Shown piece after piece: positions 3,673-60,044 of a DNA stretch of 64,000 nucleotides (the first letter of the stretch is position 1; each line of letters opens with the position of its first letter). Both the position numbers and the translations under genes were made by a program. The DNA is from Candidatus Doudnabacteria bacterium (GTDB lineage: Bacteria > Patescibacteriota > Doudnabacteria > UBA920): assembly GCA_963768175.1 (NCBI GenBank), contig CAVYGQ010000001.1:840717-904716 (forward strand). Reading direction: 5' to 3'. The notes under the pieces were generated by a model. The model did not search any database. It worked only from the letters and a program-made list of their open reading frames with translations, and was not told the DNA's origin.

Positions 3673-4458
3673 TTATTTAAATGACACTAATACCGTAAAT
3701 TCTCCTTTAATGGAAGGTTTTTCTTTTAAAACATCAGAAACCTGCATCGGCGTACCGCGGATAAACTCTTCGTGCATTTTGGTGATTTCGCGGGCAATGA
3801 CGATTTGCGATGACGGAAAGGCATTGGTAATATAGTTTAAGGTTTTTAAAATCCGTTCCGGGGATTCATAAAAAATTGCTGTGGCTTCGGCATCGGCCGC
3901 GCTCTGCAGCGCCGAAACGGTTTTTGCCGCGGTTTTTTGTAAAAAACCCAAAAACATAAATTTATCGGTCGGCAAACCGGAGGCTGAAAGCGCGGCAATG
4001 GCGGCATTGGCTCCCGGGATCGGGACAACGGCCACATTTTCTTTTATGCACTCGCGCACCAAGCGAAAACCAGGATCGGAAATCCCGGGTGTGCCCGCAT
4101 CGGTAATTAAACAGCCGTCTTGTTTGGCCAGCCGGCGCGCCAGCTCTTTTACAATTTGTTGTTCGTTAAATTCCGCGAACTGAATAATTGGTTTCGCTGA
4201 AATTGCGAGGAGTGCATCCCGCCCCGACTCGCCGTCTTCGGCGAGGCGGGCCGACGAAGCAATCCCGTCTTTGTTTGAGATTGCCGCGCCCTCAGATGCA
4301 TTCGGGCTCGCAATTTCTAGACGTTCAATGTATTGCAGCAGCCTCCTGCTATATCCTGGATTTTCCGCAATAACAAAACTGCACGATTTTAAAGTTTCAA
4401 TCGCGCGCAGGGTTATGTCCCCCAGATTTCCTATTGGAGTCGCAACGATATACAACAT
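3673..4458 (-). CDS. rsmI: 16S rRNA (cytidine1402-2'-O)-methyltransferase RsmI, with an in-frame insertion of about 40 aa
   Basis: MLYIVATPIGNLGDITLRAIETL and ITDAGTPGISDPG motifs. An extra block, LEIASPNASEGAAISNKDGIASSARLAEDGESGRDALLAISAKP, is encoded by a GC-rich palindrome at 4205-4311. Confidence 0.8.
   Translation of the reverse strand: MLYIVATPIGNLGDITLRAIETLKSCSFVIAENPGYSRRLLQYIERLEIASPNASEGAAISNKDGIASSARLAEDGESGRDALLAISAKPIIQFAEFNEQQIVKELARRLAKQDGCLITDAGTPGISDPGFRLVRECIKENVAVVPIPGANAAIAALSASGLPTDKFMFLGFLQKTAAKTVSALQSAADAEATAIFYESPERILKTLNYITNAFPSSQIVIAREITKMHEEFIRGTPMQVSDVLKEKPSIKGEFTVLVSFK
4205..4311. repeat. GC-rich palindromic element inserted in frame in rsmI
   Basis: Arms gcgaggagtgcatc and gatgcattcgggctcgc are imperfect inverted repeats. 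The element contains nested hairpins ccgcc...ggcgg and ctcgccgtcttcggcgag and has higher GC than the flanking sequence. Confidence 0.65.
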
Positions 4459-4487
4459 TAGAATTTTAAATTTAAAATTTTATATCC

Positions 4488-4766
4488 CTACCAGTTTTTA
4501 TCCGGCGCTTCCAAACCAAAAGCCGCTTCTATAAAATCGTATTCCGCCTTAAGCTTGTCGCGGTATTCTTCCAGTTCGTTTTTTTGCTCGCCTTCGGCCT
4601 CGTACCATTCGTCATAGGAATTTTTTAATTCGTCATCAATCTCCTGCAGTCTCGCGTAGGCTTCGGCTTCTCCCTGCGGGCCCTGCTCCGCCCATTCCTC
4701 GTAGCTCATGCCGAGCGTCTTTTTGTATTTATCATCGTATAGGCTTTGTATGTCTTCTTGGTCCAT
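4488..4766 (-). CDS. Hypothetical acidic protein (92 aa)
   Basis: An ORF rich in E, D and Y with no recognisable domain. Confidence 0.4.
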   Translation of the reverse strand: MDQEDIQSLYDDKYKKTLGMSYEEWAEQGPQGEAEAYARLQEIDDELKNSYDEWYEAEGEQKNELEEYRDKLKAEYDFIEAAFGLEAPDKNW

Positions 4767-4924
4767 AGAAAGTTATATGATACGGATATACGGATTAAAT
4801 ACTGATGATACGGATAATACAGATATCCATCAAGACGTTGCCTGACAGAATCCGTATTATCAGTTTCATCCGCATGTATCAGTATATCAGTATCTCCAAT
4901 TAGTTATTATCTCTACCTATTTTA

Positions 4925-4992
4925 CTCTAAATCTCCAAAAAAGAAAAACCCTCTATGTATTGCCAAGGCCGTCGGGCCTGTTTGGCAATAGA
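4925..4992 (-). terminator. Rho-independent terminator for the dipeptidase operon
   Basis: The long inverted repeat ccctctatgtattgccaa...ttggcaatagaggg is followed on the minus strand by a T run. Confidence 0.6.
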
Positions 4993-5212
4993 GGGTCTTT
5001 CCGAAAAGTCAAAAGAAGCTTTTTGTAAGCCGAAAGATTTACCTTGCGGCCCATCGCCTTATAAATAAAGGCGATATACATCCTGACGAATCAGGATTGG
5101 TTAAAAAACTTTTAGTTGTTTTTTATTTTGGTTTCTTCTGATGAAGAACTAACTTTTCTATACTAAGTATAGCAAATTTTTAGGCAGTTGTCTAGGGCCC
5201 TGACCCGGCATT

Positions 5213-10622: not shown

Positions 10623-11357
10623 ATGCAAGATAAGTTTGGCGGAAAAGAACCAAAGTATTACGATATTTTTACTGGTTTGTTTGTGGCAATATTGCTGATT
10701 TCAGAAATTACCTCTACAAAAATTGTGTCTTTGGGGTTTATCCAAACAGCAGGCGCCGCGGTGCTGTTCCCTATCTCTTACATTTTTAGCGATATTTTAA
10801 CCGAAGTTTACGGCTACGCCAGAGCCAGGCGCGTCATGTGGATCGGCTTTGCGTCTTTGGTATTGCTTTCAGCAATCTTAATTATTGTCCAGTATCTGCC
10901 GCCGGCGCCCTCCTGGCACAACCAGGCCGCTTACGACGTGATTTTGGGTGTTGTGCCCAGAATTTCCTTTGCCAGCGTGATAGCTTATTGGGCCGGCGGT
11001 TTTGCCAACGATTTAGTCTTGGCCAAAATGAAGCTTTTGACCAAGGGCAAATATTTGTGGACGCGCACCGTGGGCTCCACCGTGGTTGGCCAGGCCGTGG
11101 ACACTTTTTTGTTCCTTAGCATCGCGTTTTATGGTACCTTGCCCAACGCGGTTATTTTACAAATTATCTTCAGCTTTTATTTGTTTAAGTGCGGTTATGA
11201 AGTCGTAGCCACCCCGATTACTTATTTTGTGGTCAATAAATTAAAAAAGGCCGAAGGCCTGGATGTGTTTGATTACCATACCAATTTCAACCCTTTCAAG
11301 TTCAAGGTTGAAAATTCGGTAGACCAAGGGGCATCCTTGGACCCGGAACAATCTTAG
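10623..11357 (+). CDS. yhhQ: Queuosine precursor transporter (YhhQ/DUF165 family)
   Basis: A multi-TM protein carrying the SDILTEVYGYARARRV motif typical of DUF165/Vut transporters. Confidence 0.7.
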   Translation: MQDKFGGKEPKYYDIFTGLFVAILLISEITSTKIVSLGFIQTAGAAVLFPISYIFSDILTEVYGYARARRVMWIGFASLVLLSAILIIVQYLPPAPSWHNQAAYDVILGVVPRISFASVIAYWAGGFANDLVLAKMKLLTKGKYLWTRTVGSTVVGQAVDTFLFLSIAFYGTLPNAVILQIIFSFYLFKCGYEVVATPITYFVVNKLKKAEGLDVFDYHTNFNPFKFKVENSVDQGASLDPEQS

Positions 11358-11375
11358 ACCAAGGATGCCCCTTGG
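11324..11375. terminator. Perfect 17-bp inverted repeat (CCAAGGGGCATCCTTGG / CCAAGGATGCCCCTTGG) between convergent genes
   Basis: Seen directly in the sequence. A related copy lies at 57743-57781 after rnhB. Confidence 0.7.
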
Positions 11376-11377
11376 TA

Positions 11378-12795: not shown

Positions 12796-12872
12796 GGGCT
12801 AGTAGCTCAGCTGGTTAGAGCACGTCTCTTATAAGGACGGGGTCGATGGTCCGAATCCATCCTAGCCCACCA
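12796..12872 (+). tRNA. tRNA-Ile (anticodon TAT)
   Basis: Cloverleaf with acceptor GGGCTAG/CTAGCCC, anticodon loop CTTATAA, a GATGG/CCATC T-arm and an encoded CCA. Confidence 0.6.
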
Positions 12873-16802: not shown

Positions 16803-17084
16803 ATGTACCTTGAAGTAGGGTTATTTGGCTTCGTTATCATAAAGGAGGGACCCTCTTCTTTTGCAGATATCGAAGTCGAGCTCGTGAGGCAAGAGCTGGT
16901 TGGTCGGGGGGTGATTTTTGACCTCACCGGCCAGCAGGCCGACCCGAGCGAGGTCAAGAAGATTGCCATGGCGCTGCGCGTGCCGTGGATTGTCGTCGGG
17001 AGTGGTGCCGACGGCCTGGAAGGCCACACTGCCCAGACCGTTGAGCAGGCGGAGGACCAGCTCATGAGAGGGTATGGGAGCTGA
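16803..17084 (+). CDS. Hypothetical 93-aa protein in a GC-rich islet
   Basis: A GGAGG SD lies 6 nt upstream. GC content is far above the flanks. No domain is recognised. Confidence 0.45.
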   Translation: MYLEVGLFGFVIIKEGPSSFADIEVELVRQELVGRGVIFDLTGQQADPSEVKKIAMALRVPWIVVGSGADGLEGHTAQTVEQAEDQLMRGYGS

Positions 17085-17131
17085 GACTTTCTCGACGGGG
17101 GTTGGTTGTGCTGTGCGCCGGCCAACCCCTT

Positions 17132-22459: not shown

Positions 22460-23924
22460 ACTGCCAAACGTCCGCGGCCGGTTTGCTGGCCGGGTTTTCT
22501 TTGAAGTAGATTTTACGATTCTTTAGGGGCGTCCAGTCAGACGGCGTGGAAATAAAGTCGCCGAGATAAGGTTTTGCAATATCCAGCACAAAATCGTGCG
22601 GCAAGTCGTCAGGCAGGCAAATACCTTTTTTCGGATTTTCAAACATCCATAGTACGGCGGCAATTACGCCTAGCGCGACCTGTAAAGTGGTGGCATTTTG
22701 GCCAGGTGCCAGCCTCCGGGCTTCCTGTATGCTTAAATCGCTCCCTGTCCACCAAGAATTATACCGATGCCCCATCAGTAGCGCGCCTAAAATGTCCGCC
22801 CCGGAAGTAATCTCATCTTCCAAAATTCTTATCTTGGACTGCATTTCGTAATTCCTGCCGCGAAGTTCGCATAAAGAAGATAGTGTTTCGTGGCACGGCA
22901 TATACGCGTAATGCACTGTCGGGCGGTAAACTGCCCTATCTCCATCCCAAACTGTTAACCTGTCGGATAACCCAAATGCTTCGCCGTGGCGAATGACCAT
23001 GCCCACAATTTCTTCGTTGGGAATCCATGACCTTACCCAGGTATTAATTCCCATTTGGGAGAGCATAATCTGATTTTTTGGCCCGTAAGGCGGAATATTA
23101 GCCAAGTCCGGTAGCCTTTGTTCGTGTGTGCCCCAACCCATCTCGGCCGGCGCGGTTCCTTCTTCCCGCAAGCCTTCCACGCTCCAGGTTCCTACAAATT
23201 CATCAACTTCTTTTGGGCGATTGGTAATTTGCGTGTCGCGCTCGCTGCAGTGGATTACTTTGATTCCCAATTTTTGTCCGAGCAAATTGAATTTGAGGTT
23301 TTTAATATAATTTTCCAGTTCTTCCCTGTCTTTGCCAGCCACTTTTTTATCTGCGATTGTTTTATTGCCGATATCAATCAATCCTTGTTTGACAAAATGG
23401 GAGATCAAACCGGGGTTTGCGCCATGGTCCACGACTGCCGTAGTGGCGTCTTTCCAGTCTTTGGACATGTCGTGCAGTTTCATTTGGCGCCAGTAAAGCG
23501 ATTTTTCAAATGGGCTGTCAGTAAATAATCCCTTAATGGAATCCCAGATTTCAACCGAAGTATTTACATACAAAACATTATGGTCGTGGCACCAGCCGAT
23601 AATATCATTAGCACCAATATTCCATGCCAAATCTATAATCAGGCCGCCCTTGTCTGTGTATTTGGCCAACTCCGGGCCTAGGTTTTCCGGCGTAATCCTG
23701 TTGCGTACAAATTTGATGCCCTTGTCCGTGAATTTTTTTAAAGCCGCTGCTTTGTCTTCAAAATCCATTACCGTGACGTTTTTTGGGTCAACCTCAATTT
23801 TTTCCAGCAGAATCGGCAGGGTGCACTGCGACACCGCGCCATAACCGATAATCAAAATTTTGCGGTCAAACTTTTTTTTTCCGCCGGAGGCGGATCCGCC
23901 TTTAGCGGACATACGTTTTTCCAT
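22434..23924 (-). CDS. hss: Homospermidine synthase / saccharopine-dehydrogenase-family enzyme
   Basis: NAD-binding N-terminus (ILIIGYGAVSQCTLPILLEK) and 496 aa. An in-frame AKGGSASGG cassette sits near the N-terminus. Confidence 0.55.
   Translation of the reverse strand: MEKRMSAKGGSASGGKKKFDRKILIIGYGAVSQCTLPILLEKIEVDPKNVTVMDFEDKAAALKKFTDKGIKFVRNRITPENLGPELAKYTDKGGLIIDLAWNIGANDIIGWCHDHNVLYVNTSVEIWDSIKGLFTDSPFEKSLYWRQMKLHDMSKDWKDATTAVVDHGANPGLISHFVKQGLIDIGNKTIADKKVAGKDREELENYIKNLKFNLLGQKLGIKVIHCSERDTQITNRPKEVDEFVGTWSVEGLREEGTAPAEMGWGTHEQRLPDLANIPPYGPKNQIMLSQMGINTWVRSWIPNEEIVGMVIRHGEAFGLSDRLTVWDGDRAVYRPTVHYAYMPCHETLSSLCELRGRNYEMQSKIRILEDEITSGADILGALLMGHRYNSWWTGSDLSIQEARRLAPGQNATTLQVALGVIAAVLWMFENPKKGICLPDDLPHDFVLDIAKPYLGDFISTPSDWTPLKNRKIYFKENPASKPAADVWQFENFRFIP
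23880..23903. repeat. 24-nt palindromic cassette AAAGGCGGATCCGCCTCCGGCGGA (in minus orientation) in frame in hss
   Basis: Identical 24-mers occur at 44773-44796 (murA) and 53990-54013 (murF). Each encodes KGGSASGG. Confidence 0.85.
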
Positions 23925-27496: not shown

Positions 27497-28132
27497 TCAG
27501 GCCGTTGGGAACAAGTAGGCCAAGATCTCATCGTGGGTAGCTTGGCCAATCTTCCCTGCCGACAGGTATAGTCCTAGCAGTTCTGATATCCGCCAAGCTA
27601 CGTAGCCTTTATAGTTCGCATTGGCGAGCTCGGCCATGCCGCCCTGCTCCCGGTCCACGAGCATGAAGATACCCGCGACATGGAGACGTTCGGCTTCTAA
27701 CACCTTAATGGACGCCAGTTTGGAATCCGCTTTGGTGATCAGGTCATCGAAGAGAGCCACGCGCTGGCCAGGCTGGTAAGCGCCGTCAATGTTGGCGCCA
27801 GAGCCGTGTGTCTTCATCTCTCGTGGAGTGATCATTGGTATCGTGGTAAAACTGGAGATTAGCGTAACCAGCGGAGTGGCGGCGGTCGGTACGTCGGCAA
27901 CCAAGTCACAGGTCACGCCTTCCATCATTTCTGTTAGGAGCCATGCGGTGTCCACCAGCAGCGTTGGAAACGAGCGGAGCAGGCGGAAGTTCAGGTAGAA
28001 TGGTGAGAGCGGGGCGTCGGGGTTTTTTTCGTGTAACTTGAGACGAAACCCTTTGCCTTGAGGCGACCTGGACTTGTCCAGGAAGATGCCGGCGTCAAAC
28101 CACGCCAGCGCGAGAGTTTCTTTGTCGATCAT
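27497..28132 (-). CDS. pyrE: Orotate phosphoribosyltransferase, second copy, GC-rich (xenolog)
   Basis: PRTase motif VALFDDLITKADS and FRLKLHEKNPDAPLSPFYLNFR. The start is taken at the internal MIDKE, because the upstream part overlaps pyrF. Confidence 0.7.
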   Translation of the reverse strand: MIDKETLALAWFDAGIFLDKSRSPQGKGFRLKLHEKNPDAPLSPFYLNFRLLRSFPTLLVDTAWLLTEMMEGVTCDLVADVPTAATPLVTLISSFTTIPMITPREMKTHGSGANIDGAYQPGQRVALFDDLITKADSKLASIKVLEAERLHVAGIFMLVDREQGGMAELANANYKGYVAWRISELLGLYLSAGKIGQATHDEILAYLFPTA

Positions 28133-28136
28133 GGTG

Positions 28137-28937
28137 TTAGTCCTGGCAGGCCTCGATGATGTTGTCGATGATGAGCTCCACCGCCGCCAGAGGATCCTGG
28201 GCGGCAGTAATGTCGCGGCCAACTACAATGCCGTTAGCGCCGCCGCTGATGGAGTTTCCTGGCGTTGCCACTGCCTTCTGCTCTTGCTTTGCGGAGCCAG
28301 GCAGTCGGACGCCAGGGGTGTAAATCAGGAAGTCCGGCCCGCAGGCTTCGCGGATAGCGGCGACTTCCAAAGGTGAGGCGATGACACCGTCGCAGCCGCA
28401 TTCCTGGGCCAGCTTGGCGTATCGAACAACGAGCTTGAGCCGATATGGCTCCTCGACCCCTTCTGGTTTCAGGCCAAGATCCACCAGGTCTTCCTCGCCG
28501 AGGGTGGTCAAGAGAGTTACGGCCAGCAGGAGAGGCTTGCGTTGCAGGTCGAGCTTAGCGGCGGTGGTGTCGATGGCTTCGCGGGCGGCTTTCATAGCCG
28601 CCTTGCCGGCAAAGGCGTGCATGTTGAACATAAGCGGTCGGAGACGGGTCAGGGCTGTTGCCGCGCCCTTGACCGTATTGCCTATATCGGCGAGTTTGCA
28701 GTCCATGAAGTCGGTGCCGACAAGCTCGCCAAACAGGTCCCGCAGGTCCTCGAGCGCCGTAAGCGCATCATCGTAGTCGGCGGTCACCAGAGTGGTAAAC
28801 ACCGAAAGTATGAACTCAAAGCCGATCTTGAACCCGCGCACCTTGCCTTTCAGCATGGTGACGAGCCCTGTGGCTTTGATCACATTGTCTACATCCAAGG
28901 CCACGATAATCCGTGACCCCGCGTCTTTTCGAGTCAT
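28137..28937 (-). CDS. pyrF: Orotidine 5'-phosphate decarboxylase, second copy, GC-rich (xenolog)
   Basis: IIVALDV start and the DxKxxDIxNT motif (MDCKLADIGNTV). Confidence 0.75.
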   Translation of the reverse strand: MTRKDAGSRIIVALDVDNVIKATGLVTMLKGKVRGFKIGFEFILSVFTTLVTADYDDALTALEDLRDLFGELVGTDFMDCKLADIGNTVKGAATALTRLRPLMFNMHAFAGKAAMKAAREAIDTTAAKLDLQRKPLLLAVTLLTTLGEEDLVDLGLKPEGVEEPYRLKLVVRYAKLAQECGCDGVIASPLEVAAIREACGPDFLIYTPGVRLPGSAKQEQKAVATPGNSISGGANGIVVGRDITAAQDPLAAVELIIDNIIEACQD

Positions 28938-29113
28938 TGTCTAGTCCTTTCACGTGAAATGAAAAGAAGACCCCACTATACAGCTAATTGGGCCTCCTTT
29001 TGCTTGTGGACGGAGTATACCAAAAGGAAAGCTTAAAATCAAGGCTTTTTTAATGGTGAATTTTCCAAAAATTTGATATGATAAAAGCAGCCCAAAATTA
29101 AAAATTATCAAAA

Positions 29114-30659: not shown

Positions 30660-31358
30660 ATGCTGACGGAAACAAAAGTTATCTTATCGGCCGATGGTTA
30701 CGATAAAGAGGGATTGCTTGGACTTGTGGAAAAAATCGGCAAGAAAGTTTATTGTGTGAAAATCCATAATTTGTATGACCGGTATGGGCCGCAAATTGTA
30801 AATGATTTGCGCAGAGCAGGGGCGCGAAAAGTTTGGGTGGACGTAAAATTACACGATATCCCCAATACGGTTAAATTGAGGGCGCGAGCCTTAGCCGAAT
30901 CCGGCTGTGAGATTATTACGGTGCACGCTTCGGGCGGTATGGAGATGATGCGGGCGGCCAAAGAAGGTTTTAATAAAGGCAAGGTTTTTGCCGTAACAGC
31001 GCTGACCTCCCTGAACAACGAGGCTATTAAGATTATTTATGGCGCCCAAGATGCCAAAGAATTGGTCATGCGTTTGGCGCTTTTGGTTAAAATGTCGGGG
31101 GTGGACGGTTTGGTATGTTCTCCGCAAGAAGTCCCGGCATTGCGCGCAGTTCCCGATTATAATGATTTAGAGCTGGTTGTACCGGGCATCCGCTCGGCAG
31201 GGGTCGGTGTGGATGACCAAAAGCGTTTTGATACCCCTTCAAATGCCTTAAGAGCCGGAGCGAATTTTTTAGTAATCGGCAGGCAAATAACTAAAGCCCC
31301 CAATCCGGTGGAGGCCGTAGATGCGTTGGAGTCTGAAATTGCGCAAGCCGTAAAATAA
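30660..31358 (+). CDS. pyrF: Orotidine 5'-phosphate decarboxylase (native copy)
   Basis: DVKLHDIPNTV (DxKxxDIPNT) and LVCSP motifs. Confidence 0.8.
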   Translation: MLTETKVILSADGYDKEGLLGLVEKIGKKVYCVKIHNLYDRYGPQIVNDLRRAGARKVWVDVKLHDIPNTVKLRARALAESGCEIITVHASGGMEMMRAAKEGFNKGKVFAVTALTSLNNEAIKIIYGAQDAKELVMRLALLVKMSGVDGLVCSPQEVPALRAVPDYNDLELVVPGIRSAGVGVDDQKRFDTPSNALRAGANFLVIGRQITKAPNPVEAVDALESEIAQAVK

Positions 31359-32440: not shown

Positions 32441-32548
32441 GACGTCATTCCGAGCGCCTGCAATATCGCGCGAGGAATCTCTTATTGGCAGTTCGTTATT
32501 TAAGAGATCCTTCACCCTTCGGATGCACTCGGGGTTCAGGATGACGCC
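32441..32548. repeat. Palindromic element of the GGCGTCATYCTGA...TCAGGATGACGCC family (copy A, intergenic, degenerate left end)
   Basis: It shares the GAGATCCTTCACCCTTCGGATGCACTCGGGGTTCAGGATGACGCC right half with copies at 43990, 54177 and 57344. Confidence 0.8.
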
Positions 32549-32618
32549 GCTAATTTGGATGTTTGAGCCTTGAAAAATGTCAGTACTTGGGGTATAATCT
32601 ATAGGCAAATTTGATAAT

Positions 32619-35205: not shown

Positions 35206-35691
35206 TTATTTTTCCTCGTGTATTTTACGTATAACTTCGTCTATATGCTGCACATATCTCGGGCTAGTGTCTAGATGGAAGCTTATTCGGGGAATGACTT
35301 TGGTGGCAAAGTGCTTGTTAACTTCGCCCTGGAGGTCGTAAATGTTTTTTCCCAAAAATGTTAAGATTTTATAGTCCAAAGATAGAGCAGTCTGAGATTT
35401 TTTATCAGCCTGCGACAAACTTTTTTTCCCTCTCCCTTCTTGCCCGCCGTAGCCTTGGCGAAGGCGGGTGGGAGAGGGTGCCCCAAGCCCGTCTTGGGGC
35501 GGGTGAGGGTCTGGGTTAAAAATAGAAATCCAAATTTTGGCGTACTTCATATCTTTGCTGGTTTCCACTTTGGTTATGGTCACCAGGCCTTTTTGCCAAT
35601 CCAAAAATTTATGCAAAACCGGCCCCAATTCGTGCTGGATTAAGGAGTTTACCTTAGCTATGCGGTTGGTGTCTTTTTTTACCGGCTTCAT
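35206..35691 (-). CDS. rbfA: Ribosome-binding factor A with an in-frame insertion of about 40 aa
   Basis: RIAKVNSLIQHELGPVL and the C-terminal KH-like part match RbfA. The middle segment NPDPHPPQDGLGAPSPTRLRQGYGGQEGRGKK is encoded by a GC-rich hairpin element. Confidence 0.75.
   Translation of the reverse strand: MKPVKKDTNRIAKVNSLIQHELGPVLHKFLDWQKGLVTITKVETSKDMKYAKIWISIFNPDPHPPQDGLGAPSPTRLRQGYGGQEGRGKKSLSQADKKSQTALSLDYKILTFLGKNIYDLQGEVNKHFATKVIPRISFHLDTSPRYVQHIDEVIRKIHEEK
35427..35516. repeat. REP-like hairpin element in frame in rbfA (conserved loop GTAGCCTTGGCGAAG)
   Basis: cccgcc-GTAGCCTTGGCGAAG-gcggg, the flanking cctctccc/gggagagg stem and a second hairpin gccccaag...cttggggc. Confidence 0.7.
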
Positions 35692-40876: not shown

Positions 40877-40962
40877 CAGCCAATGTGTTCAAAAACCGGC
40901 GGTTGTTCGGCGTTAGGAGGCGCGCGAACTACTGACCGGTTTTGTTTTGGCAGAATTGTTTA

Positions 40963-40994
40963 CTTGCTAAACTCACGGCCGTGAGTTTAGCAAG
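40963..40994. terminator. Perfect palindrome CTTGCTAAACTCACGGCCGTGAGTTTAGCAAG (a family member is at 60009-60040)
   Basis: A 14-bp stem lying between convergent genes. Confidence 0.65.
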
Positions 40995-40995
40995 T

Positions 40996-43455: not shown

Positions 43456-43989
43456 ATCTAAGCTATTGTAGCACTAGTTATGGCTTGCGTTCAAATGATA
43501 AATTGTATCATTATCCTTTATCTTTTATCCTTGACAACCTTCGCTTGGTAAAGGATAATGGATAAAAGATTAAAGATAAATTTATTATGTCCAAAAAGCA
43601 CAAAAGAAGCGATTACCAAATACCCCAGCAAGCCGGTATTTCCCATGCCGCGGAATACCGCATTATTAAGTTTGATTTGGTAAAAGTGGTAATTTTAAAC
43701 CTTGTTTATTTAGCGGTTATTTTGTCGTTGTATTTTGGCAACCAGCATACGCATTTTTTGGATAACTGGTTTGCGAAACTTCTCCATTTCTAGTTTATCT
43801 TTGAACAACGGGCATCATTGGTCTTAGAAATATTTCAATCCAATGGTGCCCGTTGTTACCTTTTGTTATAGACGCCCCATAATGGGCGGGTTTTGTCATA
43901 TATGATATAAAGTGGATAATTTTGGTTGACCAAAGGGCAAAAATTTGCTAAAATTGTAATACATATATCACATACGATAGTTTCCCTTT

Positions 43990-44075
43990 GGCGTCATCCT
44001 GAGCGTAGCGAAGGATCTCATTAAAGAAAGAGATTCTTCACCCTTCGGATGCTACTTCAGGTTCAGAATGACGCC
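43990..44075. repeat. Palindromic element GGCGTCATCCTGAGC...TTCAGAATGACGCC (copy B, intergenic, upstream of murA)
   Basis: Terminal inverted repeats plus an internal palindrome, GAAGGATCTC..GAGATTCTTC. Confidence 0.8.
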
Positions 44076-44094
44076 TTAGGAAAGAAAATATTAT

Positions 44095-51801: not shown

Positions 51802-51949
51802 GAGATAAAGCCCCAGTAAAATCTGGGGTTTTATCTTAGGTAAAGCAATGGTATGATATAGGTATGAACCCCGTTAGAAATTTATTCTTTCGGGAAACTT
51901 AGAGTAAATTGTTGAACATATCAAATATCTATTGTTTTATTGTTATTCC

Positions 51950-52783
51950 ATGGCTATTTCTAACGGGGTGAATAAGCAGGTTGTTATAAACAATCTTTTG
52001 ATTAGTTACAGCGAGGTACAAAGCGGCGGCGCTCAAACGCTGTTGTTTTTGCATGGCTGGCGGAGCCAAAAGGAAGTTTGGCTGCCGGTAATCCAAAAGT
52101 TGTCGGTCATAAACAGTCAGTTATCAATTTACGCAATAGATTTGCCTGGATTTGGCGGGTCGCAAGCTCCAACCACCCCGCCCCGTCAGACGGGCCACCC
52201 CTCCTTAAATAAGGAGGGGAATACTGCAGGATGGACGGTGGGGGATTATGTGAATATTGTTGCGGAATTTATTGGGAAATTAGAATTAAAAAATGTCATC
52301 GTTGTTGGCCATTCTTTTGGCGGCAGGGTGGCTATAAAATTAGCTTCGGTAAATCCGAAATTGGTAAATAAAGTGGTGTTGGTGGATAGCGCTGGATTTG
52401 CTATGGAAGCATCAAAGAAAAAATTGGCGGCCTTAGCCGCAAAAATTGTTAAACCGGTTTTTAAGCCCAAAGTCATGCAGGGACTACGCAAAAAAATTTA
52501 TCAGACAATCGGCGCGGAAGATTACGTAGCCATCCCGGAACTGCAAAAAACTTTTGTGAACGTTACGAACGAGGATTTGTCGGATGACATGAAAAAAATA
52601 CAGGCACCTACTCTTATAATTTTCGGGGAAAACGATAAAGAAACGCCGGCAACTTACGGCGAGTTAATGAAGTTTTTAATCCCAAAATCCAAATGCTTAA
52701 TTTTGAAAGGCACTGGGCACTTTAGTTTTTTGGAAAGGCCGGAGGAATTTGTAAAAATATTAAGTGATTTTATTCTATCTTAA
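51950..52783 (+). CDS. Alpha/beta-hydrolase-fold protein with an in-frame hairpin insertion
   Basis: LLFLHGW and GHSFGG nucleophile-elbow motifs. The start is taken at the ATG at 51950. The extra segment APTTPPRQTGHPSLNKEGNTAGW is encoded by hairpins at 52180-52219. Confidence 0.7.
   Translation: MAISNGVNKQVVINNLLISYSEVQSGGAQTLLFLHGWRSQKEVWLPVIQKLSVINSQLSIYAIDLPGFGGSQAPTTPPRQTGHPSLNKEGNTAGWTVGDYVNIVAEFIGKLELKNVIVVGHSFGGRVAIKLASVNPKLVNKVVLVDSAGFAMEASKKKLAALAAKIVKPVFKPKVMQGLRKKIYQTIGAEDYVAIPELQKTFVNVTNEDLSDDMKKIQAPTLIIFGENDKETPATYGELMKFLIPKSKCLILKGTGHFSFLERPEEFVKILSDFILS
52198..52219. repeat. Hairpin CCCCTCCTTAAATAAGGAGGGG inside the alpha/beta hydrolase gene (family members at 59294-59320 and 59361-59385)
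   Basis: A perfect 9-bp stem with a 4-nt loop. The similar hairpins are CCTCCCCTTAGAATAAGGGGAGG and ACCCCCTCTTATGAATAAGAGGGGGT. Confidence 0.65.
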
Positions 52784-52819: not shown

Positions 52820-54403
52820 ATGGACTTGTTTGTTCCAAAATTTATCCAATACCAATTATACCTGCTCCAGCTGGAAAATTATGAGCTGGGAAGGTATTGG
52901 AAATTGCTTATAAAAAAGGGAGTTTTCCCTAAAAAAAGCCAACCTTTGCGCAAAGAGCTGGTCTGGACCGCTAAAGCTCGGGCGTTAATGCTTATGGCTG
53001 TGGCCCTGCATGGTTTGGTGGTCGTTTTGGTTGGGCTTATGGTTTTAACTTTAAAGCCGGGCATAGATAACTTTTTTACCACAATAATTTTGGCGGTATT
53101 AATTTTGTTGCCGTTTTATTTTGTTTTTTTCAGTCTGGCTTTGTTAATCCTTAAGCCTTTGGACACTCTGGTAAAACAAAGCCTTGTGGCTAAAGCCAAA
53201 ACCAAGCTGGCTGGATTGCCTGATGTCAAGATAATCGGCGTTGCCGGCAGTTACGGCAAAACTACAATGAAGGAAGTGTTGAGGGCAGTGCTAAGTGCTA
53301 AGTTCAAAGTGCTAAGTACGCCGGAGAGCATAAACACGCCGGTGGGGATTGCCAGATGGATTATAAATAAAATAACGGACGAAACCCAAATTCTGATTGT
53401 AGAAATGGGGGAGCATTATGAGAAAGACGTTAAAGAAATTTGCGATATAGCAAAACCCGACATCGCGGTGGTTACCGGCATTAACGAATCCCACTTGGAG
53501 CGGATGAAAAAAATGGATACGGTTATTGCCACAATTTTTGAAATCGTGAGTAACGCCCAGCCCGGCGCGGCTATTGTGCTAAACGGCGATGATCGCAGGG
53601 TTATGGAGAATTATAAAAAATTTGTCTGGCCAGACCATCGGCTGGAATTTTTTACAAAAAATCCCGGCAGTGAAAAGTGTAAAGTGAAAAGTGCAAAGTT
53701 TAACACAGACAAGCTGTGTTGGAATTTAGAGATTGATGATCTTGGCTCGGTAGAACTGGATTTACTTGGGGAATACGCGTTGGGCGACGTTGACGCGGCC
53801 GTGAAAATTGCCAAAAGTTTGGGTATGAGCAATGAGCAAATTATCGCGGGGATCAAAAATATCAAGCCCGTGGAGCACAGGCTCCAGCCGATAAAGTCTG
53901 CCACGAATGTTTTGGTAATAGACGACAGTTACAACGGCAATTCCGACGGAGTAGTGGAAGCCATAAAAGTTTTGTCGCGCTTTTCCGCCAAAGGCGGATC
54001 CGCCTCCGGCGGAGAAGGCCGCCGGAAGATTTATATCACTCCCGGGCTGGTGGAAATAGGCAAAAGTTCCGCCGATATTCATCGCAGTATTGGCAAACAG
54101 CTGGCGGACGTTGCGGATGTGGTTATTTTGATAAAAAATAGCGCGACGGGGTTTATTGAAGAGGGAATCCTCTTAGGGCGTCATTCTGACCCTGAGCGGA
54201 GCGAAGGGGAAGAATCTCAAACTAAGGATAAAGAGATCCTTCGTCCCTCGGATGCACTCGGGGCTCAGGATGACGCCGCTGGTAAGAGACCAAGAATTAT
54301 CTGGTTTAATTCCGCCTTGGAAGCGTACGCGGGGCTAAAAGACATTTTAAAACCCGGGGATGTAATTTTGTTTCAGAACGATTGGGGAGACCAGTATTTG
54401 TAA
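52820..54403 (+). CDS. murF: UDP-N-acetylmuramoyl-tripeptide--D-alanyl-D-alanine ligase with an N-terminal TM extension and two in-frame repeat insertions
   Basis: Mur ligase ATP-binding motif GVAGSYGKTTMKE. Two in-frame inserts are present: the KGGSASGG cassette at 53990 and a palindromic element of about 100 nt at 54177-54277. Confidence 0.85.
   Translation: MDLFVPKFIQYQLYLLQLENYELGRYWKLLIKKGVFPKKSQPLRKELVWTAKARALMLMAVALHGLVVVLVGLMVLTLKPGIDNFFTTIILAVLILLPFYFVFFSLALLILKPLDTLVKQSLVAKAKTKLAGLPDVKIIGVAGSYGKTTMKEVLRAVLSAKFKVLSTPESINTPVGIARWIINKITDETQILIVEMGEHYEKDVKEICDIAKPDIAVVTGINESHLERMKKMDTVIATIFEIVSNAQPGAAIVLNGDDRRVMENYKKFVWPDHRLEFFTKNPGSEKCKVKSAKFNTDKLCWNLEIDDLGSVELDLLGEYALGDVDAAVKIAKSLGMSNEQIIAGIKNIKPVEHRLQPIKSATNVLVIDDSYNGNSDGVVEAIKVLSRFSAKGGSASGGEGRRKIYITPGLVEIGKSSADIHRSIGKQLADVADVVILIKNSATGFIEEGILLGRHSDPERSEGEESQTKDKEILRPSDALGAQDDAAGKRPRIIWFNSALEAYAGLKDILKPGDVILFQNDWGDQYL
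53990..54013. repeat. 24-nt palindromic cassette AAAGGCGGATCCGCCTCCGGCGGA in frame in murF
   Basis: Identical to the copies in hss and murA. Confidence 0.85.
54177..54277. repeat. Palindromic element GGCGTCATTCTGA...CTCAGGATGACGCC (copy C), inserted in frame near the murF C-terminus
   Basis: It encodes GRHSDPERSEGEESQTKDKEILRPSDALGAQDDAA and keeps the reading frame. Confidence 0.85.
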
Positions 54404-57010: not shown

Positions 57011-57739
57011 ATGACTTTTAGATACGAAAACCAAAAGTACAAACAAGGCTATAGCCATGTTATCGGCTGTGATGAAGTGGGTAAGGGCAGTTTGGCCGGG
57101 CCGGTGGTCGCGGTGGCAATAATATTGGATTTAAGATGTAAGATTAAAGATTTAAGCGAAGTCAGGGATAGTAAAATGTTGTCTCAAGAACAGAGGGAAA
57201 AACTTCAACCATTGATAAAGCAACATTGCCTGGCTTGGGGGATAGGCGTAGTCGATGAAAAAACTATAGACAAAATAAATATTCACCGCGCAACCTTGGC
57301 CGCGATGAAACTGGCTGTGGGAAATTTGTTGGCCTCTTTCTCCGGCGTCATTCTGAGGCCAAAGTGCTACTCCGAGGCTGAAGAATCTCAAACCGGGAAG
57401 AGATCCTTCGCCCGCACTGATAACTCCAGGGAACGGGCCCAGGATGACGCCGCTAAAGGAGTTTTGGTAGCCATAGACGGCAAGTTTATTATCCCCGATT
57501 TGAATTTGGAACAGGAAGCCGTAGTAGGAGGCGACAATAAAATTCTTTCCGTTGCTGCTGCCTCCATTGTTGCCAAAGTTTACCGCGATGATTTGATGCG
57601 CAAGCTTCATCGTCAATATCCGGTTTACAATTTTGCCCGGCACAAAGGCTACGGCACTTTGTTTCATCGAACAATGATTAAACAAAATGGTCTGTCGCCA
57701 ATACATCGCAGAAGTTTTTGCAAAAACCTATCAATTTAA
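57011..57739 (+). CDS. rnhB: Ribonuclease HII with an in-frame palindromic element insertion
   Basis: DEVGKGSLAGPVVAVA (DEVGRG motif). It is 242 aa against about 200 typical. The insert at 57344-57452 encodes VILRPKCYSEAEESQTGKRSFARTDNSRERAQDDAA. Confidence 0.85.
   Translation: MTFRYENQKYKQGYSHVIGCDEVGKGSLAGPVVAVAIILDLRCKIKDLSEVRDSKMLSQEQREKLQPLIKQHCLAWGIGVVDEKTIDKINIHRATLAAMKLAVGNLLASFSGVILRPKCYSEAEESQTGKRSFARTDNSRERAQDDAAKGVLVAIDGKFIIPDLNLEQEAVVGGDNKILSVAAASIVAKVYRDDLMRKLHRQYPVYNFARHKGYGTLFHRTMIKQNGLSPIHRRSFCKNLSI
57344..57452. repeat. Palindromic element GGCGTCATTCTGA...CCCAGGATGACGCC (copy D), in frame in rnhB
   Basis: Terminal inverted repeats shared with copies A, B and C. Confidence 0.85.
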
Positions 57740-57742
57740 TCC

Positions 57743-57781
57743 ACAAGGGGCATCCTTGTGCTGCACAAGGATGCCCCTTGT
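57743..57781. terminator. Inverted repeat CACAAGGGGCATCCTTGTG / CACAAGGATGCCCCTTGTA 3' of rnhB (related to 11324-11375)
   Basis: Seen directly. Confidence 0.7.
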
Positions 57782-59399: not shown

Positions 59400-60044
59400 A
59401 TGTACATAGACCTCTCCCACATTTTTAATAACAACATGCCAGTTTACCCCGGCGATCCAGAGCCGGAGCTGGTTAAAATTGCCTCTGTGGGAAAAGACGG
59501 TTTTGCAAACCACCAGCTTAAAACCACCATGCATGTGGGCACGCATATGGATGCGCCGGCGCATATGATTCAAGATGGAAAATATTTGTCCGATTATCCG
59601 GCGGGGAAATTTTTTGGTCGTGGTGTTATAATCGACGCCCGTGGAAAGCCGTTGGCCGATGCCAATTTGTTGGCAAGTCACGAAATCCAGGCCGGCGATA
59701 TAGTAATAGTTAATTTTGGATGGGCACAAAATTTTGGCAGGGATGAATATTATAAAAAATATCCCGAACTGACCGAAGCTTTTGCAAAAAAATTAATTGA
59801 TCTTGGCGTTTCCATCGTGGGCACGGATACCCCAAGTCCGGATCGCCCGCCTTACAATGCCCATAAAATTTTACTTTCACATGATATCTTAATTATCGAA
59901 AACCTTACAAACCTGGAAGCCCTTATCGGCAAAACAAACTTTGAAATTATTGCTCTCCCAGCTAAATTTGCAGCCGAGGCCGCGCCTTGCAGAGTTGTGG
60001 TAAAGCTACTTGCTAAAACCGCGGCCGCGGTTTTAGCAAGTTAA
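59400..60044 (+). CDS. Cyclase-family protein (kynurenine formamidase-like)
   Basis: HVGTHMDAPAH motif. The C-terminal 12 aa are encoded by a palindromic repeat. Confidence 0.7.
   Translation: MYIDLSHIFNNNMPVYPGDPEPELVKIASVGKDGFANHQLKTTMHVGTHMDAPAHMIQDGKYLSDYPAGKFFGRGVIIDARGKPLADANLLASHEIQAGDIVIVNFGWAQNFGRDEYYKKYPELTEAFAKKLIDLGVSIVGTDTPSPDRPPYNAHKILLSHDILIIENLTNLEALIGKTNFEIIALPAKFAAEAAPCRVVVKLLAKTAAAVLAS
60009..60040. repeat. Perfect palindrome CTTGCTAAAACCGCGGCCGCGGTTTTAGCAAG overlapping the cyclase gene 3' end
   Basis: A family member of the palindrome at 40963-40994. Confidence 0.7.

Follow-up and report, generated by a model that had tools for sequence, protein, structure and literature searches.

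The rsmI gene of a Candidatus Doudnabacteria bacterium carries a GC-rich palindromic insert of 40 codons, which very probably represents a non-autonomous dispersed palindromic repeat of the repetitive extragenic palindromic (REP) or REP doublet forming hairpin (REPIN) type that landed in, or was recombined into, the gene. The insert lies in a stretch of 64,000 nucleotides (contig CAVYGQ010000001.1, positions 840,717 to 904,716 of the forward strand), referred to here as the window, and was originally predicted from the letters of this DNA and the translations of its open reading frames (ORFs). The sequence documents the membership of the element in a repeat family by its design, the dispersal of that family in many copies in this genome and across phyla, the absence of the element from orthologs of the gene, its in-frame status and the covariation of its arms.

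A palindromic insert in an otherwise normal RsmI

The host gene encodes a recognizable RsmI. In a Pfam search, PF00590 (TP_methylase) matched residues 1-236 (E 7.7e-27), a PDB search matched the protein to the solved RsmI structures 3kwp, 5hw4 and 9pzg (E about 1e-38 to 1e-40), and the closest homologs are annotated as 16S rRNA (cytidine1402-2'-O)-methyltransferase of Candidatus Doudnabacteria. The genes of the window, by their nearest homologs, likewise point to this group (Patescibacteria), and an identical RsmI is encoded on a contig of 949 kb. The PDB alignments are split, with residues 2-43 and 93-258 aligning on either side of the insert and residues 44-92 standing opposite only about eight residues in E. 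coli RsmI (5hw4) and in 3kwp, which leaves around 40 extra residues in the window protein.

At its two ends the palindrome has GAAATTGCGAG (4199-4209) and CTCGCAATTTC (4307-4317), which form an 11-nt inverted repeat without mismatch. Further in are inner arms that are 89% complementary (4210-4218/4295-4303) and a nested hairpin with arms that are 87% complementary (4220-4234/4239-4253). The coding strand of the element folds as a Y shape of -67.5 kcal/mol, compared with -45.1 +/- 4.0 kcal/mol for 200 dinucleotide shuffles, none of which folded as well (z -5.57), and the GC content over 4200-4299 is 0.63 against about 0.44 for the whole window. Four of the six reading frames are open through the element.

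The original prediction had described an in-frame, GC-rich palindromic insertion of about 107 nt (4205-4311), with terminal inverted repeats and nested hairpins, in a gene whose methyltransferase core was intact. The intact core is borne out by the Pfam and PDB matches on both sides of the insert; the insertion itself is borne out by its fold, its composition and the 40 amino acids that it adds relative to insert-free orthologs, and the hairpins are nested as described. The peptide quoted at that time, LEIASPNASEGAAISNKDGIASSARLAEDGESGRDALLAISAKP, is encoded on the minus strand within the rsmI ORF. The proposed interval lies inside the element but is shorter than its full extent (4198-4317), and the repeats that were quoted do exist but are the inner arms rather than the true termini.

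An AlphaFold2 model of the window RsmI, made with a 63-sequence alignment (mean predicted local distance difference test score, pLDDT, 74), has a folded core and places a low-confidence insert between helix 34-46 and strand 91-93. Residues 53-77 fall below a pLDDT of 50, and blocks within 51-80 average 35-43, although the short core segments 122-126 and 150-159 are likewise below 50. Such a model would fit a disordered, tolerated loop of about 40 residues on an otherwise normal RsmI. Its predicted tryptic peptides are LEIASPNASEGAAISNK, DGIASSAR and LAEDGESGR.

Anatomy of the element

The anatomy was derived from an alignment of seven homologous copies, namely that of the window and those of loci L001, L005, L007, L201, L202 and L203. 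Two REP-like stem-loop modules, arranged head to head as a dimer with 10 nt of spacer between them, make up the element (Table 1). The parts of the gene-proximal (5') module follow in the order tag, P1, internal loop, P2 hairpin, P1' and tail, and this design is common to 138 distinct modules from a metagenome scan described below, all counts from which refer to the matches listed; the spacer varies in sequence and length across these family members. The second module is inverted, and its scheme across copies is [GTC/GAA]-ATTGC-GAG-GAGTGCATCCGAC-GAA-GCAAT-CCC. It corresponds to the long type of the family, GAG-GAGCG..GCGAC-GAAGCAATC, save for its GAA tag and an additional 33 nt. These 33 nt form a GC-rich hairpin in the P2 loop that is unique in the window and missing from L001 (whose RsmI is 82% identical) and from L201-L203. 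The hairpin is thus a later, lineage-specific addition at the hairpin tip.

In the window copy of rsmI the tag has changed symmetrically at both ends, from GTC/GAC to GAA/TTC. The window copy and L001 have AGAA/GGAA where the tag is expected, and L005, L007 and L201-L203 have TGTC; the tails of the window copy are CTC and CCC. RNAalifold, run on the seven copies, found double changes that preserve pairing in 6 of 25 predicted pairs. In the window and L001, pairs 2-124 (U-A) and 3-123 (C-G) have both become A-U; the two copies are sisters, so these changes count as one event. Furthermore, pair 12-29 alternates between C-G and G-C among copies, and the P2 clamp covaries among the orthologous copies (CCC/GGG vs GCC/GGC). 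In these alignments, the pairing is maintained by compensatory changes in the arms.

Presence, absence and turnover of inserts in relatives

The best 120 homologs of the window RsmI (61-100% identical by BLASTP) have a bimodal length distribution. Fifty have 11 residues between the invariant anchors YSxRLL and QFAE, typically EHIGAWPKEMV, and the other 70 carry 5-97 extra residues (median 31) at the same site. The anchor interval is 51 residues in the window protein, where the insert is bordered as QYIERL[40 aa]AKPII, against 11 in insert-free Doudnabacteria orthologs; the difference equals the size of the palindrome, and the alignment therefore delimits the insertion as exactly 40 amino acids. 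A signature in the flanks tracks the insert, with QYIDxL...KKE in proteins that have one and EHIGAWPKE in those that do not.

Thirty-eight Doudnabacteria-like loci came from a scan in which each species was represented by one genome; 15 of them have an insert at the rsmI site, and all 15, as well as the window copy, are in frame and free of stop codons between the anchors. Neither property would be needed if the segment were removed from the RNA, so the inserts are probably read as protein, and that of the window would be translated as part of RsmI. The terminal stems and the hairpin design are retained in the six homologous copies from relatives, and the inserts of L003, L006, L013, L015 and L017 are other or decayed sequences with no palindromic structure, so the original prediction was not overturned by relatives that have the segment without its palindrome. 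Across relatives, the fold z of the insert regions ranges from -6.4 to +1.3, a spread which suggests that some inserts are decaying.

Several repeat families occupy the rsmI site among these relatives. The ATTGC type is that of the window and its six homologous copies; an ATTCC/ATCCC type is found in L002, L008, L017 and L028, a CCCCTC-hairpin type in L004, and the ATTCT type, which is found in MurF in the window, in P0004 and P0088 (peptides ..ESQTK..EILRPS..QDDA). Proteins with and without an insert can be 96% identical elsewhere, as in P0019 and P0045. The DNA of this pair is 100% identical on the downstream side of the site, over more than 650 nt, and drops to about 78% identity on the upstream side. 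A mosaic with its junction near the repeat reflects either recombination between lineages or an assembly chimera. Loci L204 (ENA k141_469821) and L205 (Ga0210388_10487943), which are rsmI alleles with and without the insert, show the same mosaic, with identity reaching the yebC-like gene. Gains and losses were also counted on a tree of the RsmI core built by neighbour joining (27 changes vs 38 for shuffled states, bootstraps 20-32), and the count was rejected as uninformative because close pairs are mosaics. Was the rsmI site hit once or repeatedly? The data fit either history.

Two relatives have a 23S_rRNA_IVP (PF05635) gene close to rsmI; in L203 (1796-2161) it separates rsmI from the yebC-like gene, and in L201 (2336-2713) it follows directly on the yebC-like gene. 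No such gene adjoins rsmI in the window.

Related copies in the window and in other hosts

Four further dimers in the window have the exact CGTC tag and a CTC tail, and have the core GAGTGCATCCGA in common with the rsmI element (Table 1). All five related copies in the window are thus dimers, and related modules are present in 6.6-kb loci of other Doudnabacteria. Two of the four dimers are inside genes. The one in the MurF-like gene has modules at 54180 (+) and 54274 (-), of the form GTC-ATCCT-GAG-CCCC GAGTGCATCCGA GGGA-CGAA-GGAT-CTC, and lies in the C-terminal region where the PDB alignment with MurF stops. The one in RNase HII coincides with 38 extra residues relative to 3o3g and breaks the Pfam match in two. 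The main difference between the modules of these dimers and those of rsmI is P1, with the covarying stems ATTGC/GCAAT, ATCCT/AGGAT and ATTCT/AGAAT. Different reading frames are used by the copy in MurF and the one in RNase HII, and the repeat family, like its rsmI copy, is open in several frames.

These copies bear on the earlier suggestion that rsmI was the fifth gene in the window with an in-frame palindromic insert and that a genome-wide process was at work. The genes concerned are rsmI and those for RbfA, MurF (at two sites), RNase HII and an alpha/beta hydrolase, and the four additional dimers with a GAGTGCATCCGA-like core bear out such a process. In a search of the window for the arm sequences, of the kind that had also been proposed, ATTGCGAG was found only in the rsmI element; the family link emerges when the modules are aligned by design.

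Table 1. Positions and make-up of rsmI, its inserted element and the related dimers in the window.
Feature	Position	Strand	Description
rsmI (16S rRNA C1402 2'-O-methyltransferase)	3673-4458	minus	261-aa ORF, host gene of the insert
Whole inserted element	4198-4317	minus	120 nt, 40 codons, E48-S87, peptide EIASPNASEGAAISNKDGIASSARLAEDGESGRDALLAIS
Palindrome proper	4199-4317		119 nt; coding stretch is the palindrome plus 1 base
Second module, inverted	4199-4266	plus	GAA-ATTGC-GAG-GAGTGCATCC[33 nt]GAC-GAA-GCAAT-CCC
Nested GC-rich hairpin	4220-4252 (+/-2 nt)		33 nt, CGCCCCGACTCGCCGTCTTCGGCGAGGCGGGCC on plus; encodes about RLAEDGESGRD
Spacer between modules	4267-4276	minus	AAACAAAGAC on coding strand
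Gene-proximal (5') REP-like module	4277-4317	minus	GAA-ATTGC-GAG-CCC GAATGCATCTGA GGG-CGCG-GCAAT-CTC
Sister dimer	32441-32549	plus	intergenic, downstream of dihydroorotate dehydrogenase gene, CGTC-tagged
Sister dimer	43990-44078	plus	intergenic, upstream of helix-turn-helix-enolpyruvylshikimate phosphate (HTH-EPSP) synthase gene, CGTC-tagged
Sister dimer	54177-54277	plus	in frame in MurF-like gene 52820-54403, GRHSDPERSEGEESQTKDKEILRPSDALGAQDDA, fold z -4.6
Sister dimer	57344-57451	plus	in frame in RNase HII (rnhB) 57011-57739, VILRPKCYSEAEESQTGKRSFARTDNSRERAQDDA

The ATTGC family extends well beyond this lineage. A metagenome scan with the pattern GTCATTGCGAG-N50-80-CTCGCAATGAC matched at least 120 stretches and gave at least 141 copies on contigs with GC contents of 0.35-0.70, a range which indicates many different host organisms. 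The base preceding GTC (GTCATTGC) is C in 86 of 138 copies (62%) and T in 44 (32%), and among the 130 copies scored for the 3-nt tail that follows the stem, 64 have CCA and 36 have CTC. The inner part of the module starts with GA and ends with GAA in 99 of the 138 distinct modules (most others have GTG/GCG), inner segments are 7 to 42 nt long, and the enclosed hairpin varies in sequence and length with its complementarity retained (GCGAAGC, GCCCGAAGGGC, GCGACCACAGTCGC, GCGCCGGAGGCGC). When each core was compared with its own shuffles, 41% of 131 cores folded better than the 10th percentile. Similar copies are found on alphaproteobacterial megaplasmids of Methylosinus, Methylocystis and Novosphingobium. 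The 40-aa insert peptide, a query too short for such a search, found no match at E up to 0.001 among 1.84 billion representative proteins, and a phage collection held no DNA similar to the element.

The majority of the metagenome copies are intergenic or situated at the ends of genes. Pfam confirmed in-frame copies inside two proteins, one a PFL-like enzyme (L145) and the other of the NTPase_1 type (L156). Long ORFs across copies in high-GC contigs mostly look spurious, and L145, L156 and L135 were retained after a Pfam check. In L135 (WBZR01000070.1, 1688-1780), a dimer links an ORF with a DAO/BFD domain and a Pyr_redox_2 ORF in one continuous frame, possibly by repeat-mediated gene fusion or read-through. 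A different arrangement is seen in L113 (Ga0207055_1035, 3969-5019), a metagenome contig of 41% GC with at least eight ATTGC-family dimers in tandem at a period of 121 nt; clustered CGTC repeats have been reported in Neisseria and Wolbachia.

Other palindromes and features of the window

Further palindromic inserts occur in genes of the window. RbfA (35206-35691, minus strand) has 161 amino acids against 116-128 in solved RbfA structures, and its insert (about 35403-35534) is a GC-rich, hairpin-forming sequence (..PSPTRLRQGYGGQEGRG.., fold z -2.8) of a family other than that of the rsmI element. The second insert in the MurF-like ligase (53963-54034) contributes 11 amino acids, GGSASGGEGRR, from a GGATCC-centred palindrome, and a similar GGATCC palindrome is found at 23880-23909. 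The alpha/beta hydrolase gene (51932-52783, plus strand) has an in-frame hairpin, CCCCTCCTTAAATAAGGAGGGG, within a longer palindrome at about 52175-52245 (peptide ..TPPRQTGHPSLNKEGN..); by eye, it resembles the insert at the rsmI site of L004.

Another hairpin family (..CAAGGGGCATCCTTG..) has three copies at gene ends (11323-11376, 43804-43857 and 57743-57781), with arms of 18-19 nt that are 94-100% complementary, and these may be terminators or a further repeat family. Two perfect 34-nt palindromes (40962-40995 and 60008-60041) have the common ends ACTTGCTAAA...TTTAGCAAGT and are possible operators or terminators. A strongly self-complementary island at 16803-17115 has a GC content of 0.70 against 44% in its surroundings (253 nt fold with -119.7 kcal/mol). 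It contains an ORF of 93 aa that has a ribosome-binding site, GGAGG, and no Pfam or Rfam match. The window has two genes of the orotidine monophosphate (OMP) decarboxylase family, one within 27500-29000 and one at 30660-31358; the former region is a GC-rich block (average 0.51, peaks of 0.69), adjoined by a 241-aa ORF without a Pfam match, and may be foreign DNA. Finally, the 12 tRNA genes of the window include a tRNA-Ile with anticodon UAU (12796-12872).

Origin of the rsmI insert

How might such an element have come to reside in rsmI? On the reading that we favour, a copy of a REP/REPIN-type repeat would have inserted or recombined into the rsmI gene of a Doudnabacteria lineage, at the position of the helix 2-strand 3 turn in the N-terminal domain. 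The copy would have persisted, transcribed and translated with rsmI as a tolerated loop, because the element is open in most frames, has a length that is a multiple of three and occupies a site that tolerates a loop. The arms would then have kept pairing through compensatory changes, and one module would later have gained the 33-nt GC hairpin at its tip. Mobility may have been provided by a hairpin-recognizing enzyme acting on single-stranded DNA without target duplication, comparable to the chemistry of REPs and their REP-associated tyrosine transposases (RAYTs) or of the insertion sequences (ISs) of the IS200/IS605 type.

Several observations weigh against this interpretation. None of the 57 ORFs of the window matches a transposase Pfam family, and the window holds a single ATTGC-type copy, which gives no sign of recent mobility of the subfamily here. 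Structure is not universally kept at the rsmI site, as the fold z is -1.6 or weaker in L003, L006, L013, L015 and L017. Compensatory changes can come from repair within a palindrome, without selection, and the translation of the insert is deduced from its frame and is not an observation. Furthermore, a stem of 5 bp, an internal loop of the GA/GAA type and a second, variable hairpin make up the ATTGC module, and the window copy of rsmI ends in GAA/TTC and lacks a CGTC/TGTC tag, both of which differ from the published CGTC-tagged REPs; the element appears to belong with, or next to, that superfamily by its design, not by a match to a curated model.

The terminal inverted repeats, the length of about 80-120 nt and the dispersal in many copies would also suit an ordinary IS-derived MITE (a transposable element of the miniature inverted-repeat kind), that is, a deletion derivative of an IS with a DDE transposase, moved by cut-and-paste and leaving target-site duplications. 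However, of 138 copies, 12 have flanking direct repeats of 2 nt, one has repeats of 3 nt and one of 4 nt, where chance would give 8.6, 2.2 and 0.5, so flanking repeats are not above chance, and the alignment of homologous copies revealed no target-site duplication at the window rsmI copy. The elements are built of two self-folding modules with tag and tail, as REP dimers are, and the window has no IS or transposase; a MITE is therefore decidedly unlikely. A comparably small probability attaches to a functional RNA element in the mRNA, either an intervening sequence that is excised or a stem-loop by which rsmI translation or the stability of the mRNA is tuned, and the peptide would not matter in either case. 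Speaking for this are the high stability of the hairpin (-64 to -67 kcal/mol) and the view that transcribed REPs act as RNA elements (PMC3733652), but the inserts are in frame and stop-free in the window and in every insert-bearing genome locus, and several relatives have lost the structure with rsmI still intact. Sense and antisense strands fold about equally well over 11 copies (differences of -5.5 to +6.6 kcal/mol, with no trend), which argues against a role specific to the sense RNA, and no Rfam family matches 4198-4317, whether judged by gathering scores or at E up to 10.

A loop evolved by the host as a functional part of RsmI in this lineage, self-complementary in its DNA by chance, is very improbable. 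Although the constant pairing of inserts with their flank signature could be co-adaptation within the protein, the inserts are hypervariable in length (5-97 aa) and sequence in proteins whose cores share about 82% identity, the one site is taken by different repeat families, the same modules occur between genes and in unrelated genes, and the insert has a low pLDDT. We give just as little weight to a palindrome made locally and de novo by template switching or hairpin-primed repair, with no mobile element involved. The nested 33-nt hairpin, found once in the window and located at the tip of a hairpin, could plausibly have arisen in this way, but this leaves the whole element unexplained, as its modules correspond to those of a repeat family that conserves tag, stem and tail and is found on contigs listed in the metagenome scan and on plasmids of other phyla. 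Other candidates were considered and set aside: an intein or intron (the element is too small and has no splicing motifs), a CRISPR repeat (copies in this genome are dispersed and not arrayed), and the target of a diversity-generating retroelement (the variation concerns different repeat families and is not restricted to adenines).

The dispersed-repeat origin can be extended into a wider conjecture, which is possible but which we hold to be doubtful. CGTC-type REP dimers would be an active class of element across phyla, moved by a transposase that has gone unrecognized; in the gene-dense genomes of Patescibacteria they would persist mainly in frame, in permissive loops of essential proteins, and the helix 2-strand 3 turn of RsmI would be a recurrent site of landing or exchange, at which repeat families displace each other and spread by recombination. 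If this were true, the elements would be a systematic source of unexplained protein insertions in bacteria of the Candidate Phyla Radiation (CPR).

Implications

Rickettsia is the best-known case of palindromic repeats that lie in frame in housekeeping genes, and the same process is now seen in a CPR bacterium, with at least five genes affected within 64 kb. This accounts for a class of odd, low-complexity insertions in CPR proteins that could otherwise be taken as functional domains, gene-calling problems or assembly errors. The rsmI site, a single permissive loop with presence/absence polymorphism and turnover of repeat families in close relatives, is a natural system in which to study the movement of repeats, and the same system could be used to ask how proteins tolerate inserted peptides. 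Furthermore, the peptides ..IASS..LAMT, VIPAKAGIQ and ..ESQTK..EILRPS..QDDA are worth masking in homology searches and alignments of CPR proteins.

Comparison with known repeat systems

The CGTC-tagged REPs, of families CGTC-1 to -4, are described by Di Nocera, De Gregorio and Rocco (2013, BMC Genomics 14:522, PMC3733652). These REPs have an unpaired CGTC or TGTC tag (CCTC also occurs) at one end of the stem-loop, a stem of 8-9 bp in which the first two pairs are A-T, a loop of 4-5 nt in the four families and a 3-nt tail, CCA; they mostly form head-to-head dimers with variable spacers of 20-100 bp or shorter, and no dedicated transposase is given for them there (PMC3733652). They were found in five phyla, chiefly in Alphaproteobacteria, and intragenic copies, including dimers, encode 20-30 residues (PMC3733652). 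In the ATTGC family and the orthologous rsmI copies, the outer tag is largely C/TGTC, though not in the window rsmI copy and L001, and the tail is often CCA or CTC, with CTC and CCC in the window copy; both window modules have ATTGC...GCAAT, a stem that starts with two A-T pairs, and the window element consists of inverted modules with a 10-nt spacer that can fold into one large stem-loop. Both groups are dispersed in many copies (here, five related dimers in 64 kb) in several phyla that include Alphaproteobacteria, and both have intragenic in-frame copies, of 20-40 aa in the ATTGC family, with no transposase nearby. Besides the differences in tag and stem given above, the host is a member of the Patescibacteria (CPR), which we did not find covered in the consulted parts of PMC3733652 or in the literature searched. 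As the family agrees in its dimeric form and in the A-T pairs that begin the stem, and in part in its tag and tail, but not in the lengths of stem and loop, the ATTGC type would be a new family beside the superfamily rather than one of its four. The same source equates CGTC-1 with the Neisseria repeat dRS3 and the Rickettsia palindromic element (RPE) RPE-6, and CGTC-4 with RPE-4, and its supplementary table gives VIPAKAGI, SFPRKRES, DSRFRGND and ..GMT as peptides of intragenic Rickettsia copies (PMC3733652). Strings of this type recur in the RsmI inserts of relatives, as TIPAKAGIQ...SGME (L008), TIPAEAGIQ...SGMT (P0020) and IPAFAGMA (P0100).

REPINs, which are mobilized by RAYT transposases (Bertels and Rainey, 2011, PMC3116915), likewise consist of two inverted REPs and a spacer that form one long hairpin, and they have no target duplications. 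However, their REPs have a GTAG tag at the 5' end, where the elements here have C/TGTC (GAA in the window copy), a single-copy RAYT gene is flanked by REPs, with none seen among the 57 window ORFs, and REPINs are almost always extragenic. The Neisseria dRS3 repeats (ATTCCC-N8-GGGAAT) resemble the ATTCC/GGAAT modules at the rsmI site in relatives, for example ATTCCCGCGAAAGCGGGAATCCAG in L008, but the window copy has an ATTGC stem. The dRS3 repeats are intergenic and serve as integration sites for phages and ISs. By analogy only, the GC clusters and double-hairpin elements of fungal mitochondria (PMC4478555) are also GC-rich mobile palindromes in a more AT-rich genome, sometimes in coding sequences, but they are unrelated in sequence and their hosts are organelles. 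Nothing comparable was found reported for Patescibacteria in the literature searched. The in-frame palindromic repeat in rsmI is a new example of a known phenomenon, in a phylum for which we found no prior report.

The RPEs were reportedly described by Ogata and colleagues in 2000. They are palindromic repeats in frame in unrelated housekeeping genes and open in several frames, with peptides at the protein surface that are compatible with fold and function (PMC10969869). In-frame palindromic repeats in unrelated genes are likewise seen here, in rsmI, murF and rnhB and, elsewhere, in those of the PFL-like and NTPase_1 proteins. RPE-4 and RPE-6 are CGTC REPs by published statement, a link by description and not by sequence. 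In contrast, RPEs have a host of another phylum, RPE-1 is longer (about 150 bp), and in the present system a single rsmI site shows turnover of several repeat families across relatives. The Rickettsia palindromic element is the closest functional parallel to the repeat in rsmI.

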